Below, in pieces: positions 1-38,761 of a stretch of DNA of 64,000 nucleotides; position 1 is the first letter of the stretch, and each line of letters begins with the position of its first letter. Source of the stretch: Escherichia phage PP01; the sequence record NC_054930.1. One strand, 5' to 3'. The translations under genes and the position numbers were made by a program. The notes below the pieces were generated by a model. The model was given only the letters and a program-made list of their open reading frames with translations. It was not told the DNA's origin and searched no databases.

Positions 1-1474
1 TTTCAGCAATATCACGCCAAGTAAATAAAAGAGCAATATCAATTCGTGCTTTTTCACCTTGACTAAATGAAGCATAACTAAAATCTTCACGACCACGGGA
101 TTTAATTGTCTCATTAAATTCTTCATCTAATGTAAACACATAATCCGCTTCCATTATTTTAAGATAATGGTTAATCTGCTTATTAAATAATGGAATGTAC
201 TTTTTAATAATAGCACCTTTAATACCAGAATCTTTGAGCATATCAGTCAAAATTCCTCGGTGGTATTTTTCCATTACTAAATTAGTTTTTGTCTTAACAA
301 TTTTATCAAGTTCTTCTTGAAGCAGTGCTATTTCATCAGCATGGTCAATAAACTCAGAAGATGCTTTTTCTATAGCCGCTTTAACCTTTTTAGCTTTATC
401 TACCGTCGTGATTAGAGATTGCTTTTTATTGCGAATATCATTTGCCAACGACTGTTGGGTTTTAATATTATCTCGGTATTCATCAACAAGAACTTTTAAA
501 TTATCACGATGTGTTGAAAGCTGTTCAAACGAATGCGTACATTCAGAAACTTTATCTTTAATTTTAGAAACAACTTTATCACCGGAACTTAATTGTGACA
601 AACAGGTTGGACATAATCCACCTTCGTGATACATATTAATGACTTTATTATACGAGTCAATTTTTGATTTAATTAAAACTGCTTCTTGACCGATTTTATT
701 AAATGCATCAGTAGGGTCTTCATCTAAAACAATATTAACTAATCTTTCGTTAGCTTCTTCTATTTCCGATTTTAGCGTTCTAGCTTCTTTTGCCAAATCA
801 TCATACATATTTTGCAGACGAGTAAGGTTGTCACCCGTTAATTTTTTCTGGCGTTCAACGTTATCATTATATATTTTAATTTGTTGGATAATACTATCTT
901 TTTTAACATCAAGCACTTGGTTCTGCGAATTTAATTCACGTATTAGTGCTTTATTAAGCTTATCCATTTCAGCTAATGTTCCTACCTCAAGCAAGTCTTC
1001 CACAAGCTTTCTTCGTGCAGGGGTCGACAAACCCATGAAAGGGGTATACCCTGCTGTACCAAGAACAACAATCTGCTTGAAACTGGCATATGACATTCCG
1101 ATAAGCTGTTCAAATTCTGCTTGGAAATCTTTACTGCTGGCAGATTCATTAAGACGTGTACCGTTAACGGTGATTTCGAAAACGTTTGGTTTTTGTCCTC
1201 TTTTGATATAGTACTTTTTCTCATCATATTCCATCCACAGTTCAACTAAAAGTTCTTTCTTATTTGTGCTGTTTATTAATTGACCTTTCTTTACATCACG
1301 AAATGGCTTGCCAAAAAGCCCAAATGTGATGGCTTCTAGCATAGTAGACTTACCACCGCCATTTCGCCCAGTAATAAGAGTTTTTTGAACCTTATCTAAT
1401 TGAATGTCAACTCCATTTTGACCAACTGACATTATATTTTTATATTTTACTCTATTAAGTTTAAATGATTTCAT
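1..1474 (-). CDS. 46: Recombination endonuclease subunit gp46 (SbcC/Rad50-like ATPase); 3' part cut by window edge
   Basis: Minus-strand frame open from window start to an ATG at ~1472-1474; N-terminus MKSFKLNRVKYKNIMSVGQNGVDIQLDKVQKTLITGRNGGGKS with Walker A. Absent from ORF track because it has no in-window stop. Confidence 0.85.
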   Translation of the reverse strand, partial: MKSFKLNRVKYKNIMSVGQNGVDIQLDKVQKTLITGRNGGGKSTMLEAITFGLFGKPFRDVKKGQLINSTNKKELLVELWMEYDEKKYYIKRGQKPNVFEITVNGTRLNESASSKDFQAEFEQLIGMSYASFKQIVVLGTAGYTPFMGLSTPARRKLVEDLLEVGTLAEMDKLNKALIRELNSQNQVLDVKKDSIIQQIKIYNDNVERQKKLTGDNLTRLQNMYDDLAKEARTLKSEIEEANERLVNIVLDEDPTDAFNKIGQEAVLIKSKIDSYNKVINMYHEGGLCPTCLSQLSSGDKVVSKIKDKVSECTHSFEQLSTHRDNLKVLVDEYRDNIKTQQSLANDIRNKKQSLITTVDKAKKVKAAIEKASSEFIDHADEIALLQEELDKIVKTKTNLVMEKYHRGILTDMLKDSGIKGAIIKKYIPLFNKQINHYLKIMEADYVFTLDEEFNETIKSRGREDFSYASFSQGEKARIDIALLFTWRDIAE

Positions 1475-1489
1475 TTTGTATCCAATTGT

Positions 1490-2344
1490 TCACAATGAAG
1501 AAAATTCTTTAACTAAAGCCTGTAATGAAGCCTCTATTGGATATCCATTCTTAACTAACATTTTCCTAAACATTACATGTTTAGGACGATTATATGATAT
1601 CCACAATTCATACAATTTATCTTTATTATCCCAATGATAGCCTTTTCGTCGAGATGCTATATGAGCTTTTCTAATCTCCGGATTTTTCCAACTAGCAGCT
1701 ACTGAATTTGATATAGCTATTTTATATTCAGGTTTTGATAAAGCAGCACGAACAGCCTTTTGGTGTTTAATTTTATTTTCTTCGTTATTAAACCATTCCC
1801 TTGAAGCCATTGAAATTTTTTGTTTTGTTTTAAAATTATTTAATCTTTCTTTATTATCTTTCCTATTTTTTGCTACTGAAAAATATTTTAATGCCCTTTC
1901 TCTAGCAGCATTTCTATTTTGCGGATTTGAATAATACTGTTGAAGCCTTTTTGATATTGTGTCACTTACATCTTGTTTTATAAAACTATATTCAGCAGCT
2001 ATTAAATCAACTTCGGCTAAAGATAAATTTTTATATGTTTTTCCTGACATCATTCTATTTAAAGCATTTAACATTTTTCCATTTTTACCTTTTGCTAATA
2101 AGAAGTGTGCTTTAAAATGATTAAAATGACTTAAATTAACTAAATTCCATGTAGATTTTAAATATTCAGGAAATATTGATTTAGGAAGCACGTGGTGTGC
2201 TTCCGTTTTACCTGGAGTTTTAACAGTTGAATTCACAGAAATAAAATTAATGTAAGACTTGGCGTCTTCTTCACTCAACGCTAATTTTTCAACTAATTCC
2301 TTTATTAAAAATTCATCATTAATGTCAAGTTTAAAATTCTTCAC
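1490..2344 (-). CDS. Free-standing HNH-family homing endonuclease-like protein (Mob-like), 284 aa
   Basis: ORF track; HNH-like motif EAHHVLPKS...NLVNLSHFNHFKAH; basic C-terminal half; GTG start overlapping the stop of the upstream small ORF. Confidence 0.6.
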   Translation of the reverse strand: MKNFKLDINDEFLIKELVEKLALSEEDAKSYINFISVNSTVKTPGKTEAHHVLPKSIFPEYLKSTWNLVNLSHFNHFKAHFLLAKGKNGKMLNALNRMMSGKTYKNLSLAEVDLIAAEYSFIKQDVSDTISKRLQQYYSNPQNRNAARERALKYFSVAKNRKDNKERLNNFKTKQKISMASREWFNNEENKIKHQKAVRAALSKPEYKIAISNSVAASWKNPEIRKAHIASRRKGYHWDNKDKLYELWISYNRPKHVMFRKMLVKNGYPIEASLQALVKEFSSL

Positions 2345-2556
2345 AAAAGATTCCTTTTAATGTATCTTTTAGACCATTCTATCATATCATCATAATCTAA
2401 AAAGTATTCATCAAATTCAGCCATGCAAACAACACCTTGTGCTGTTTTTGATGTAATATAAATTATTCCAACATATCTAGAATCTTCTTCGGTATAATCA
2501 ATGTTTGCTATGAATTCATCATTAATGTCAAATGTCGAAAACTTCACAGTATGCAT
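2341..2556 (-). CDS. Hypothetical small protein (~71 aa; start taken at internal Met)
   Basis: ORF track 2341..2604; internal start MHTVKFSTFDINDEF avoids overlap with upstream ORF and shares the ...DINDEF N-terminal motif with the adjacent HNH ORF. Confidence 0.4.
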   Translation of the reverse strand: MHTVKFSTFDINDEFIANIDYTEEDSRYVGIIYITSKTAQGVVCMAEFDEYFLDYDDMIEWSKRYIKRNLL

Positions 2557-2791
2557 CCTTAATACAAGATACAGCCATATCTCGCAATGATTTAGGTGTG
2601 TCATTATCTAAAATGTTGAAGTTAAAAGATACAGCCCAGTCAGTGCAGACCGTAACCTTTTTAATACAATTATCTTCAACCTCTAGCGGTTCAAACCAAT
2701 ATTCAATAATTTCTTTATGCCCAATATCATCTTTTACTTCGCATTCAAAATGCTGACTCATCATAACATTTTTAAATTCATCAAAAGTCAT
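2528..2791 (-). CDS. Hypothetical protein, 87 aa
   Basis: ORF track; same strand as neighbours; stop overlaps the next gene's start. Confidence 0.45.
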   Translation of the reverse strand: MTFDEFKNVMMSQHFECEVKDDIGHKEIIEYWFEPLEVEDNCIKKVTVCTDWAVSFNFNILDNDTPKSLRDMAVSCIKDAYCEVFDI

Positions 2792-3807
2792 TGTGTTGCC
2801 TCTACATATAACTGATTTGCATATTGAATAAGTGCTTCGCGGTCAGAATCAGTGATGTCTGGAATTGCATTAATATATTCTTCCATCAACGTTTGAAGAG
2901 ATTGAACTTCAACTTCTTCACTATCATCTGACTCGACAGAGTTATCAATCTTTGACACAACTCGTAATGAATGCACAACTTTTTCTAGTTCAGATTCGAA
3001 CTTCGTTAGATTTTTGTCTACTTCAGTTACTATAACACGTACTGATAGATTTGTAAAATCTTTATAGTCAATTTTTCCTTTAAATGGATAATGAATTCTA
3101 CGATGCCAGGTAGTATTGTTTGGAATAAATTCCATTCGTTCTGTTTCTGTATCAAACATCCAGAACCCGCGAGGGTCATTCTCGTCACCTGCAGTTAGTG
3201 TCCATGGTGTCCCAATATATCTGACGTTTGCAGCCTCAGAAATAGTATGGAAGTGACCAGACCACACTTCTTTATAAGTCTTAAGGAAATCAGGTTCAAG
3301 ACCGTGAGATTTCATTCCTTTATAAAAATAAAATCCATTCAGTTCCCAGTGACCAACACAAAAAGAAGCAGATGAAGTTTTGATGTGTTCAAGAATTTCA
3401 CCAGTATTTTCTTCGCACATCCAAGGAATTAAATCAATCAAACATCCGTCAAAATCTACTGTAGTAGGCTTATCATATACTTTAACATTAGGATATTTAG
3501 CCAAAAGCTCAGTAGAAGCATTTGGAGTTAAAGTATTTTTAAAGTGCATATCATGGTTTCCTACAACAGTATGTAGGGTAATACCAGCATCATCAAGCAT
3601 TTGAACTATTTCACGAGCGAACTCCATAGTTTTATGCGTGATTGCTTTTCGCACATCAAAAATATCGCCGTATTGAATCCATGTAGTAATTCCGTTTTTC
3701 TTAGAATATTCTATTGCTTGTTTAATTCCATCCAACTGAATGGATTGAACCCACTCATCATCGGCTTTAACACCTAAATGCCAATCACCTAAATTTAAAA
3801 TTTTCAT
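2788..3807 (-). CDS. 47: Recombination nuclease subunit gp47 (Mre11-like metallophosphoesterase)
   Basis: 339 aa, same length as T4 gp47; phosphoesterase motifs GDWHLG, GDIFD, GNHD, GHWE, GHFH. Confidence 0.9.
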   Translation of the reverse strand: MKILNLGDWHLGVKADDEWVQSIQLDGIKQAIEYSKKNGITTWIQYGDIFDVRKAITHKTMEFAREIVQMLDDAGITLHTVVGNHDMHFKNTLTPNASTELLAKYPNVKVYDKPTTVDFDGCLIDLIPWMCEENTGEILEHIKTSSASFCVGHWELNGFYFYKGMKSHGLEPDFLKTYKEVWSGHFHTISEAANVRYIGTPWTLTAGDENDPRGFWMFDTETERMEFIPNNTTWHRRIHYPFKGKIDYKDFTNLSVRVIVTEVDKNLTKFESELEKVVHSLRVVSKIDNSVESDDSEEVEVQSLQTLMEEYINAIPDITDSDREALIQYANQLYVEATQ

Positions 3808-37402: not shown

Positions 37403-37479
<77 letters not shown>

Positions 37480-37482
37480 TAA

Positions 37483-38148
37483 TTAAAATTTCATTTTTCG
37501 ACCTTTAAACCATCCTTCTGGAATTGGGTCAGTTTTCTTAATACGTTTAGAAACTTTTTCATCCAATGAATGAATCCACATCATGCCAAATTGGGAATTC
37601 TTTTCACCTTGTTGGTGTTTATTTCTGGCGTGAGATTCTTTCATTTTATTAATAGTTTCAGGAGTATGGGTCTTACCCAAGAAAGATTTAGTATTTAAAA
37701 ATTTCTCTCTATACTTAGGATTATCCCAAAGCTGTTTAAACCTTTCTGAACCCATTTTACGATATTTTTCTTTAAGGTCTGGGTCGTTCTCAAATCTGGT
37801 TTTAAAAGCGGCAGCTCCTTTTAAGGAAGCTTCTTTCTTTTTATCCAAATATTCTTTAGTGTTTAAATGGTCCCAACCACCTTCACCACCTAATTTCAGA
37901 TTATAAACATCAGGGCGCTTTAAAAACTCTTCAGTCACAATATTCTTTTCTGACTCAAACATAGAGGTTTTATCGTCAAAGAACTCTAATATTTCTTTAG
38001 AAAAATTTTCTATACCATATTTATCTTGGGCTCTTTTTAATAATTTACCAGAACCCATATATCCATCATCTAAATTTTCGGTAGAATGAGCGCCTATATA
38101 GATTTTATTATTAATTTTATTTGTTATTTTATAAATGTAATGGAACAT
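37483..38148 (-). CDS. segB: GIY-YIG homing endonuclease SegB
   Basis: 221 aa; GIY-YIG motif HYIYKITNKINNKIYIGAHST...YMGSG; embedded in the tRNA cluster as in T4. Confidence 0.85.
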   Translation of the reverse strand: MFHYIYKITNKINNKIYIGAHSTENLDDGYMGSGKLLKRAQDKYGIENFSKEILEFFDDKTSMFESEKNIVTEEFLKRPDVYNLKLGGEGGWDHLNTKEYLDKKKEASLKGAAAFKTRFENDPDLKEKYRKMGSERFKQLWDNPKYREKFLNTKSFLGKTHTPETINKMKESHARNKHQQGEKNSQFGMMWIHSLDEKVSKRIKKTDPIPEGWFKGRKMKF

Positions 38149-38189
38149 AAATATCTCCTATTTCTAAGAGTATTTATGTTCCCAAAATA

Positions 38190-38261
38190 TGGCCCTGGGT
38201 GGAATTGAACCACCATCTGGCGATTATGAGTCGCTTGCTTGAACCTTCCAGCTACAGGGCC
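38190..38261 (-). tRNA. tRNA with anticodon CAT (Ile, AUA-decoding, by analogy to T4; or Met)
   Basis: Acceptor GGCCCTG/CAGGGCC, anticodon loop CTCATAA, T-arm GGTGG-TTCAATT-CCACC. +/-2 nt. Confidence 0.7.
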
Positions 38262-38267
38262 TTGATA

Positions 38268-38340
38268 TGCTGATTGACGGAATCGAACCGCCGACGTCCT
38301 CATTACAAGTGAGGTGCTCTACCTACTGAGCTAAATCAGC
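38268..38340 (-). tRNA. tRNA-Thr (anticodon TGT)
   Basis: Acceptor GCTGATT/AATCAGC, anticodon loop CTTGTAA, T-arm GGCGG-TTCGATT-CCGTC. +/-2 nt. Confidence 0.8.
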
Positions 38341-38347
38341 GAAATTA

Positions 38348-38434
38348 CGGAGGCGATAGGATTTGAACCTATGAGTCGCCGGAGCGACTGCCGGTTTTCA
38401 AGACCGGTGCATTAAACCACTCTGCCACGCCTCC
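38348..38434 (-). tRNA. tRNA-Ser (anticodon TGA), long variable arm
   Basis: Acceptor GGAGGCG/CGCCTCC, anticodon loop CTTGAAA, T-arm ATAGG-TTCAAAT-CCTAT; 2-nt spacer to tRNA-Pro. +/-2 nt. Confidence 0.8.
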
Positions 38435-38436
38435 AG

Positions 38437-38510
38437 TCTCCGCGGCAGGATTTGAACCTGCGACATTCTGCTCCCAAAGCAGACGCTCTACCAAACTGAG
38501 CTACACGGAG
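38437..38510 (-). tRNA. tRNA-Pro (anticodon TGG)
   Basis: Acceptor CTCCGTG/CGCGGAG (one G-U), anticodon loop TTTGGGA, T-arm GCAGG-TTCAAAT-CCTGC. +/-2 nt. Confidence 0.8.
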
Positions 38511-38522
38511 TAAATTAAATTT

Positions 38523-38594
<72 letters not shown>

Positions 38595-38600
38595 AAACTT

Positions 38601-38687
38601 TGGTACGAGAAGTGGGACTCGAACCCACAAGGAAATCATTCCGCAGCATTTTAAGTGCTGTGCCTTTACCAATTTGACCATTCTCGC
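38601..38687 (-). tRNA. tRNA-Leu (anticodon TAA), long variable arm, CCA encoded
   Basis: Acceptor GCGAGAA/TTCTCGT, anticodon loop CTTAAAA, T-arm GTGGG-TTCGAGT-CCCAC; 1-nt spacer to tRNA-Gln. +/-2 nt. Confidence 0.8.
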
Positions 38688-38688
38688 G

Positions 38689-38761
38689 CTGGGAATAAAG
38701 GACTCGAACCTTTGCATCCTGGAATCAAAATCCAGTGCCTTACCAACTTGGCTAATTCCCA
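38689..38761 (-). tRNA. tRNA-Gln (anticodon TTG)
   Basis: Minus strand reads TGGGAATTAGCCAAGTTGGTAAGGCACTGGATTTTGATTCCAG...GGTTCGAGTCCTTTATTCCCAG, matching my recollection of T4 tRNA-Gln. +/-2 nt. Confidence 0.85.

Follow-up and report, generated by a model that had tools for sequence, protein, structure and literature searches.

How can a mobile gene settle at the very beginning of an essential gene and leave that gene in working order? The question is raised by the locus between the recombination genes 47 and 46 of Escherichia phage PP01 (NC_054930.1), analysed here within a stretch of 64,000 nucleotides (nt), referred to below as the window. All genes of this region lie on the minus strand, and the gene 47 stop (2788) and the gene 46 ATG (1474-1472) stand 1,313 nt apart (1475-2787). 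Free-standing homing endonucleases shape T-even mosaicism and marker exclusion, only a handful of them have known targets, and their harmless integration beside essential genes is poorly documented. The interval probably houses an 870-base-pair (bp) cassette with specificity for the gene 46 5′ end, carrying a free-standing, T4 Mob-type endonuclease gene, which captured the start of gene 46 and supplied a duplicate. The locus would offer a natural example of the selfish capture of an essential gene's start with cassette-borne compensation, and a candidate target or immunity patch in three genera. The class of Mob-type free-standing homing endonucleases is already known, and this member is annotated in RefSeq; the start capture with its compensating duplicate start, the fossil leader, and the constant attachment to the gene 46 start across genera, together with a patch that travels along, appear to be new.

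Insertion point and the duplicated gene 46 start

Homology with T4 is unbroken from the small upstream gene 46.1 through GTGAAGAATTTTAAACTT, the gene 46 start of T4 (MKNFKL), and picks up again at TTTAAACTTAATAGAG, which places the insertion inside gene 46, after codon 6. The initial annotation had put it between genes 46 and 47, a position that the alignment with T4 does not bear out. The features at the two junctions are as follows.

1457-2326, minus strand: 870-bp insertion relative to T4 (pairwise and 15-genome alignments)
2352-2356, minus strand: Shine-Dalgarno sequence AAGGA, belonging to gene 46 in T4 and to the endonuclease open reading frame (ORF) here; 46.1 through GTGAAGAATTTTAAACTT is identical to T4
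2327-2344, minus strand: captured original gene 46 start, GTG AAG AAT TTT AAA CTT (MKNFKL), now endonuclease codons 1-6; 18/18 identical to the gene 46 start of T4, C40, RB5 and other cassette-free genomes, and contiguous with the 46.1 homology
2327-2335, minus strand: left copy of the 9-nt direct repeat TTTAAACTT (alignments)
1457-1465, minus strand: right copy of the 9-nt direct repeat TTTAAACTT (alignments)
1490-2344, minus strand: endonuclease ORF of 284 amino acids (aa), intact (phrog_655, phrog_12434; AlphaFold2; BFVD; RefSeq annotation)
1475-1489, minus strand: 15-nt cassette-borne spacer ACAATTGGATACAAA with a weak GGA Shine-Dalgarno sequence for gene 46 (sequence inspection)
1409-1474, minus strand: replacement gene 46 start (ATG AAA TCA = MKS) and carrier-type patch, gene 46 nt 1-66, codons 1-22; candidate target/immunity region, invariant in 8/8 carriers

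Because of the 9-nt repeat, the insertion can equally be placed at 1466-2335. The corresponding span measures 831 nt in the records of genomes lacking the endonuclease gene, against 1701 nt in the query. The gene 46 start is duplicated, with GTGAAGAATTTTAAACTT at the left end of the cassette and ATGAAATCATTTAAACTT at the right. The endonuclease ORF has taken over the AAGGA Shine-Dalgarno sequence of gene 46, the GTG that overlaps 46.1, and six codons (MKNFKL). At the opposite end, the cassette brings ACAATTGGATACAAA-ATG-AAA-TCA, the carrier gene 46 starts with ATGAAATCA, and gp46 then begins MKSFKL; the protein is still full length, with the changes N3S and I22V. The 46.1 TGA overlaps the endonuclease GTG as GTGA (2341-2344), an overlap already recognised in the initial annotation. 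A GTGA overlap of 46.1 and 46 is also present in the cassette-free Gaprivervirus phage UPEC07, and the T4-like arrangement is therefore taken to be ancestral and that of the carriers derived.

The resident genes of the locus lie outside the cassette.

2788-3807, minus strand: gene 47 (SbcD/Mre11-like recombination nuclease subunit), resident; 339-aa ORF, annotated gp47 in RB68, T2, T4 and T6
2528-2791, minus strand: gene 46.2, small resident gene, also in T4 and other genomes without the endonuclease gene (Pfam PF25721 T4_Y03C, E 2.6e-43; PHROG 2192)
2341-2547, minus strand: gene 46.1, 68 aa, GTG start, resident, also in T4 (Pfam DUF5487, E 4e-49; PHROG 2327 over 1-68/68; T4 annotation 207 nt)
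1-1474, minus strand: gene 46 (Rad50/SbcC-like ATPase subunit), its 3′ end beyond the window (translation MKSFKLNRVKYKNIMSVGQNGVDIQLDKVQKTLITGRNGGGKST; annotations in relatives)

Genes 47 and 46 had been taken to be adjacent in T4, and the roughly 1.3 kb between them in PP01 to be the cassette. The interval does measure 1,313 nt, and it does contain, beside two small ORFs, the announced 284-aa ORF with EAHHVLP...NLVNLSHFNHFKAH (2344-1490, minus strand). However, 46.2 and 46.1 stand between 47 and 46 in T4 and in about 447 other Tequatrovirus records without the endonuclease gene. Since both are resident T4 genes, the cassette comprises 870 bp with one gene, not three. The GTG at 2547, and not the ATG at 2604, is backed as the 46.1 start by Pfam DUF5487, which matches residues 20-85 of the longer ATG-started ORF, by PHROG 2327, and by the T4 annotation.

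Annotation pipelines miscall starts at the 47-46 locus, and the mis-annotation is systematic across these records. In the records of RB5, teqdroes, slur04 and PTE-Eco15, gene 46 is 42 nt short and begins at the internal ATG of KNIMS, not at the 46.1-coupled GTG; in the record of phage vB_EcoM_P8, the endonuclease ORF is cut to 747 nt. In Salmonella phage S16 (locus ~990-1196), the 46.1-like ORF probably starts about 80 nt before its annotated ATG, at a GTG that overlaps the stop of gene 47 (VKLHEFNLGNGW...). In UPEC07, 11 contiguous nt, in register and encoding MKTF, are common to the starts of 46.1 (ATGAAGACTTTTGAATTT) and gene 46 (GTGAAGACTTTTAAGCTT), and a capture of the gene 46 start may at one time have brought in 46.1 itself.

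No T4 late promoter (TATAAATA) or properly spaced MotA box is found within the cassette or at either start, and no significant RNA hairpin sequesters either start (z = -0.06 for the gene 46 spacer, z = 0.11 for the endonuclease start). Translational coupling to 46.1 from the captured start is therefore the likeliest mode of expression. For mobE, the relevant passages of PMC2988022 describe a start codon that likewise overlaps the stop of the upstream gene, nrdA (UAAUGA), interpreted as translational coupling. Unlike mobE, the PP01 ORF takes the resident start codon, the Shine-Dalgarno sequence and six codons of its target gene, and brings a replacement start. In Aeromonas phage Aeh1, the mobE insertion splits nrdA, and in T4, mobA lies between the topoisomerase genes 39 and 60 ('genes in pieces'). 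As in those cases, a Mob-type gene lies inside conserved essential coding sequence, the function of which is kept. There, however, the host genes are cut into two functional polypeptides; here, the break lies after codon 6, with the short N-terminal piece given to the endonuclease and full-length gp46 restored by the duplicate start. Another parallel is the atp6-ORF360 hybrid of Allomyces macrogynus mitochondria, together with similar free-standing endonuclease ORFs of fungal mitochondria that form in-frame fusions with host genes: the cassette brings its own copy of the host-gene end to replace the resident one, and the displaced fragment stays beside the insert. These systems differ in being mitochondrial, in encoding GIY-YIG or LAGLIDADG enzymes, and in concerning the 3′ end of the host gene, a mirror image of the PP01 arrangement.

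Assignment of the endonuclease

By sequence and predicted fold, the 284-aa ORF is filed as a Mob-type HNH homing endonuclease. It matches phrog_655 ('homing endonuclease') over residues 1-282 at E 7.8e-45 and phrog_12434 ('HNH endonuclease') at E 4e-15; PHROG 655 is the family of the T4 Mob proteins, and RefSeq records already label the gene 'homing endonuclease'. A k-mer-indexed protein search returned just 6 proteins, and an exhaustive search of 1.84 billion representatives was used for this reason. It yields 967 relatives at E <= 1e-3, with a sole close cluster at 44% identity. Among 47 aligned relatives, Pfam matches are found to HNH (5 relatives; PF01844, best E 5e-5), to NUMOD3 (17), and to the I-HmuI NUMOD-like domain (3), while others match HNH_4 or HNH_5. 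The NUMOD3 domain (PF07460) is matched by these 17/47 homologues and not by the query, in which three internal helical repeats are visible. Two regions are thereby distinguished.

2093-2206, minus strand: HNH (beta-beta-alpha-Me) core, residues 47-84, EAHHV ... WNLVNLS HFNHFKAH (predicted secondary structure; conservation in 47 relatives)
1640-1972, minus strand: helical repeat region, about residues 125-235, with three NUMOD3-like repeats, a presumed DNA-binding module (internal DNA repeats D2-D4; all-helical prediction)

Residues H50, H51, P54, N67, H76 and H80 are conserved at >= 90% in the 47 relatives. In the AlphaFold2 model (predicted local distance difference test score, pLDDT, 95) they are carried by two strands (47-51 and 68-72) and a helix (73-84). 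The model contains the beta-hairpin and alpha-helix metal finger of the HNH superfamily, and H50, H51, N67, H76 and H80 provide the conserved His ending strand 1, the structural Asn, and the His/Asn ligand of the helix. Searches of solved structures with the whole model gave no direct match to PDB entries. In the BFVD library of predicted viral structures, 42 fold matches are found at E <= 1e-3, and all the named ones are homing, HNH or NUMOD endonucleases, including T4 MobC. The annotated mobC, mobD and mobE genes are matched by tblastn at 25-36% identity. The claim of an HNH-type homing endonuclease is thus upheld by PHROG 655 and 12434, by the Pfam HNH and NUMOD3 matches of the relatives, and by the Mob and HNH matches in BFVD. 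The ORF is free-standing: it ends at a stop of its own, separated from the gene 46 ATG by 15 nt, and no Rfam intron is present in the window. A perfect palindrome with a 9-bp stem (GGAAGCAC ... GTGCTTCC) lies at 2184-2204, exactly over the TEAHHVLP codons with the catalytic His-His, and was flagged on the antisense strand by a terminator scan.

The protein shares its PHROG (655) and an HNH/NUMOD3-type architecture with T4 MobA-E, including MobE, and its gene, like the T4 Mob genes, is free-standing, lies beside a conserved gene of DNA metabolism, and occurs sporadically among T-even phages. It differs from the T4 Mob paralogues in its gene 46 site and in being only about 25-36% identical to them. 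The succession of an HNH core and extended helical DNA-binding modules recalls I-HmuI, the HNH nicking endonuclease of Bacillus phage SPO1 with NUMOD modules, and three relatives match Pfam I-HmuI_NUMOD-like. I-HmuI, in contrast, is intron-encoded, and the PP01 protein has no direct PDB match in sequence or structure.

The gene 46 patch and the proposed fate of the cassette

Gene 46 nt 1-66 are identical in all eight sampled carriers. In each of three genera, this stretch of the carriers forms a divergent patch with sharp boundaries. Carriers and cassette-free genomes of the same genus were compared over this patch and over the sequence that follows it.

Tequatrovirus, carrier vs RB5-type: 43/57 in the patch (nt 10-66); 524-528/534 over nt 67-600
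Mosigvirus, carrier vs cassette-free: 25/36 in the patch (nt 31-66); 526/534 over nt 67-600
Gelderlandvirus, carrier vs cassette-free: 40-42/66 in the patch (nt 1-66); 510-517/534 over nt 67-600

The N-terminus of gp46 contains YQNIMSVGG(N/S)PI in cassette-free alleles of the three genera and Y(K/S)NIMSVGQ... in carriers. The carrier patches of Tequatrovirus and Gelderlandvirus are 47/57 identical and nearer to each other than to the cassette-free allele of their own genus, whereas the 57 nt adjoining the patch cluster strictly by genus. On the 46.1 side, no carrier-associated differences were found in the 15-genome alignment. This pattern would fit an enzyme that recognises or cuts the cassette-free gene 46 at the patch, with co-conversion of the stretch up to the endonuclease gene. 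The predicted cleavage window spans gene 46 nt ~15-70, and our best guess for the cut is the right edge of the patch (nt ~63-66).

A similar arrangement is described for the intronless homing of SegF and SegG in T4, with localized marker exclusion and co-conversion from a cleavage site in the adjoining gene, a concept cited in PMC2988022 and PMC2993671: the free-standing endonuclease gene is a neighbour of its target, carriers differ from sensitive genomes by clustered substitutions in the neighbouring gene, and flanking markers co-travel with the gene. The Seg enzymes are of the GIY-YIG type, with cleavage and exclusion demonstrated; the PP01 element, unlike them, is of the HNH type, and its cleavage is predicted.

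In the proposed mechanism, the enzyme would be made at a low level via translational coupling to 46.1. During mixed infection, it would cut the cassette-free gene 46 either inside the patch of codons 6-22 or at the right edge of this patch; the RB5-type allele, which is in the majority and encodes YQNIMSVGGNPI, is the most probable target. Repair of the double-strand break, a process that itself uses gp46/47, would then copy the endonuclease gene together with the re-coded, self-resistant patch. Since gene 46 encodes part of the Rad50/Mre11-like break-processing complex, the element may sit in the machinery that repairs its own breaks. Under this mechanism, T6 and EC121-like phages are predicted to be donors, T2 and RB51 dead donors, T4-type phages resistant, and RB5-type phages sensitive.

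The allele states of the empty site were sorted with a 154-nt probe corresponding to the predicted product of a deletion between the two TTTAAACTT repeats.

154/154: ELT1 (MZ892903, locus 1801-1954), cassette-free, exact deletion product
2 mismatches (GGGATT for GGAGTT): about 75 records, T4-type, cassette-free
about 14 mismatches: about 353 records, RB5-type, divergent cassette-free allele

In carriers (70 records occupied), the right-hand 98 nt of the probe are matched perfectly, and the same three states are seen in Mosigvirus. T4 has the carrier-type beginning of gene 46 without the endonuclease gene, which may be either the footprint of a loss or the background of the first insertion. Deletion between the 9-nt repeats would remove the cassette and leave a resistant, cassette-type gene 46, a product matched exactly by ELT1 and, but for 2 nt, by T4. 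In ELT1, the 46.2 region is annotated as two short ORFs and may be disrupted.

The window belongs to Tequatrovirus, and positions 1300-3000 are 98.3-99.1% identical to the listed carriers, including EC121, RB51/RB68, T6 and T2. The cassette is found in 70/517 Tequatrovirus records, a sporadic occurrence in line with the initial annotation and far from a presence in all T4-like genomes. No intermediate forms of the insert were found among the Tequatrovirus records. The ORF is intact (284 aa) in 6/8 sampled carriers. The RB68 copy, and so that of RB51, has a -1 frameshift in an A6 run equivalent to window position 1821, and the T2 copy has a -2 deletion in an A4 run equivalent to 1735-1736, truncating the RB68 and T2 proteins to 208 and 204 aa. 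To judge from their different sites, the two inactivating indels are independent. In its passage on these genes, Petrov et al. 2010 (PMC2993671) counts one 'other HNH' gene each in T2, T6 and RB51, which is probably the 284-aa endonuclease gene. This count is the only trace of the element returned by full-text literature searches and by term look-ups in PMC2988022, PMC2993671 and PMC10448857, whose matching passages give no description of the element, its junctions or its target.

An alternative history would make the cassette ancestral to Tequatrovirus, its patchiness arising from repeated loss by 9-nt repeat deletion and ordinary homologous recombination, with the endonuclease not driving its spread here, now or ever. 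The exact deletion product in ELT1, the carrier-type patch without the gene in T4-type genomes, and the frameshifts in several copies all agree with such a history, as does the fact that cleavage by the enzyme is only inferred. Nevertheless, we regard it as unlikely. The insert is 98.3-100% identical among carriers, while their flanks are only 95-99% identical to the window, and this uniformity therefore argues for recent spread rather than old vertical descent. The majority cassette-free allele has the gp46 N-terminus (YQNIMSVGG[NS]PI) of cassette-free Mosigvirus and Gelderlandvirus. In Gaprivervirus, too, 46.1 and 46 are coupled by GTGA, and the empty, B-type state therefore looks ancestral. 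Most of the sampled copies, moreover, are intact.

Relatives in other genera and the chimeric leader

Close homologues, at 44% aa identity, occur only in Mosigvirus (G2469) and Gelderlandvirus (Melville), where they directly precede gene 46 and share 14 nt with its start. Wherever the element is present, it is immediately upstream of gene 46 (Tequatrovirus 70/517, Mosigvirus 10/163 and Gelderlandvirus 5/16 records). The Mosigvirus homologue replaces 46.1, retaining its first seven codons ATGACGAAGACTGATTATGAA (MTKTDYE) and its 14-nt overlap with 46.2. The Gelderlandvirus homologue (Melville) comes after gene 47 and overlaps it as ATGA; its position is the one at which the resident downstream gene begins, in that case overlapping as GTGA. 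With a start takeover in each of the three genera, the capture of a resident coupled start is therefore regarded as recurrent in this lineage.

Such fidelity of position, kept directly upstream of gene 46 in three genera at only 44% protein identity, could also mean that the protein is domesticated and its position functional rather than parasitic. It might then serve to attack relatives that infect the same cell, by marker exclusion without homing; alternatively, it might regulate the expression of gene 46 or assist the gp46/47 nuclease. The ORF does control the former translation start of gene 46, and known T4 endonucleases are also autorepressors, according to the passages of PMC2988022 on their regulation. 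This explanation is distinctly doubtful, however, as the gene is missing from about 86% of the Tequatrovirus records, 94% of those of Mosigvirus and 11/16 of those of Gelderlandvirus, the viable laboratory phages T2 and RB51 tolerate frameshifted copies, and the surroundings of the ORF start show nothing like an operator copied from the gene 46 patch.

The leader of the endonuclease ORF contains a second trace of a resident gene. The ORF and 46.1 share GTGAAG, followed after 12 nt by the 17-mer GACATTAATGATGAATT.

2513-2529, minus strand: source copy of GACATTAATGATGAATT, 46.1 codons 7-12 (DINDEF) (exact repeat)
2310-2326, minus strand: putative fossil piece of 46.1 in the endonuclease ORF, codons 7-12 (DINDEF), in register with 46.1 (exact 17-mer)

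The 17-mer occurs in exactly two copies in the window, where 0.08 are expected even with 2 mismatches allowed, and the repeat scan extends the shared 5′ segment to 45 nt at 78% identity. The near-identical segment noted initially, giving KxxxxDINDEF in both genes, is therefore real, provided that 46.1 starts at GTG 2547 and not at ATG 2604. Its reading as a junction duplication holds in part: a duplication exists, of which the main component is the gene 46 start, the 46.1-like 17-mer being a second, embedded piece. The 46.1 of Gaprivervirus UPEC07 has NLDDEF at the DINDEF place, and a DINDEF-like N-terminus is present in none of the 151 endonuclease-family relatives retrieved. With D-[IL]-[ND]-D-E-F ancestral in the 46.1 of a cassette-free genus and absent from these relatives, the direction of transfer is therefore from 46.1 to the endonuclease. 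The leader is thus a chimera of six gene 46 codons and six 46.1 codons, followed by the endonuclease proper, and the 17-mer is read as the fossil of an earlier fusion to 46.1, a fusion of which Mosigvirus is a living example. A separate candidate, in which 46.1 is a decayed N-terminal fragment of an endonuclease, was rejected, as a comparison of the whole of 46.1 with the family shows no homology (hhalign probability 0.1%). That the common 5′ segment (GTGAAG...GACATTAATGATGAATT) is instead maintained by selection as a translational enhancer, downstream box or protein-binding site, or was copied from the endonuclease into 46.1, and is no fossil, is very improbable: both copies are equally distant from a GTG start coupled to an upstream stop, and slight variation among carriers (GATATT in T2 and GRNsp7, GACCTT in F26) means that the 17-mer is not absolutely fixed, but the motif is ancestral in the 46.1 of a cassette-free genus and lacking in the 151 relatives, a real 46.1-start::endonuclease fusion occurs in Mosigvirus, and RNA structure was not detected (z = 0.11).

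For the fossil leader, the proposed history begins with an element fused to the 46.1 start, as in Mosigvirus today. The starts of 46.1 and 46 resemble each other (both GTGAAG...TT), and an unequal exchange between them, in register, would then have put the element behind an intact 46.1. The donor lineage of the cassette would carry ATGAAATCATTTAAACTTAATAGAG downstream of an endonuclease gene.

Several observations weigh against a gene 46-specific Mob-type cassette with this history. The 284-aa protein itself has no significant match in Pfam, NCBIfam or PDB sequence searches, and thus no Pfam or NCBIfam HNH hit. The new Shine-Dalgarno sequence of gene 46 is weak, and no regulatory RNA structure or promoter is seen. 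No Tequatrovirus genome with the 46.1-fused intermediate was found; when the IMG/VR viral contigs were scanned for the exact pattern of the endonuclease 5′ end, there was no match either. The association of patch and cassette is imperfect, as about 75 cassette-free Tequatrovirus records, including T4, have the carrier-type patch, which could therefore be pre-insertion background and not a co-converted immunity tract. As the carriers are closely related, independent events are fewer than the counts of records suggest. That the enzyme cuts, which allele it targets, and that the cassette is inherited preferentially are deduced from comparisons of genomes.

The cassette that captured and duplicated the gene 46 start nevertheless remains the preferred account. 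Its insert is more uniform (98.3-100%) than its flanks and its gene 46 patch identical in all sampled carriers, an indirect sign of possible preferential, non-reciprocal inheritance with co-conversion of the flanks. A wider proposal is held more tentatively, at somewhat less than an even chance. It would join the Mob-type endonuclease gene and the re-coded first 22 codons of the essential gene 46 into a cross-genus mobile unit, which takes over the resident coupled upstream start (that of 46 in Tequatrovirus, of 46.1 in Mosigvirus, and the 47-coupled start in Gelderlandvirus) and whose leader holds fossils of earlier hosts. Public genomes would then display sensitive empty sites, occupied sites, decayed copies, and precise loss through the 9-nt repeat that leaves a resistant empty site, and the 5′ end of T4 gene 46 would be the footprint of a lost copy.

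Short matches across genera are also seen at the gene 46 start. The cassette-borne start at 1466-1474 (ATGAAATCATTTAAA) equals the resident start of the cassette-free Mosigvirus mar005P1 (1781-1795), and the gene 46 start of the Mosigvirus carrier (GTGAAAACATTTAA) matches the cassette-free Gelderlandvirus STML-198. These matches, resting on only 9-15 nt, hint at a chain of cross-genus transfers. The cassette spacer was considered as a relic of a Mosigvirus-like 46.1 3′ end and rejected, since the upstream alignment score is not above that of shuffles (p = 0.12) and only the 15-nt ATGAAATCATTTAAA match stands.

Beyond this locus, tblastn detects no other Mob-type paralogue in the window, and no group I intron reaches the Rfam gathering score there. 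The equivalent interval of T4 contains mobB, mobC, mobD and an nrdD intron; relative to that set, PP01 is therefore poor in mobile elements, like T2. A cluster of 8 transfer RNA (tRNA) genes lies on the minus strand at 37403-38761, with a 710-nt gap (37480-38189) between tRNA-Arg and tRNA-Met, the place occupied by segB in T4.

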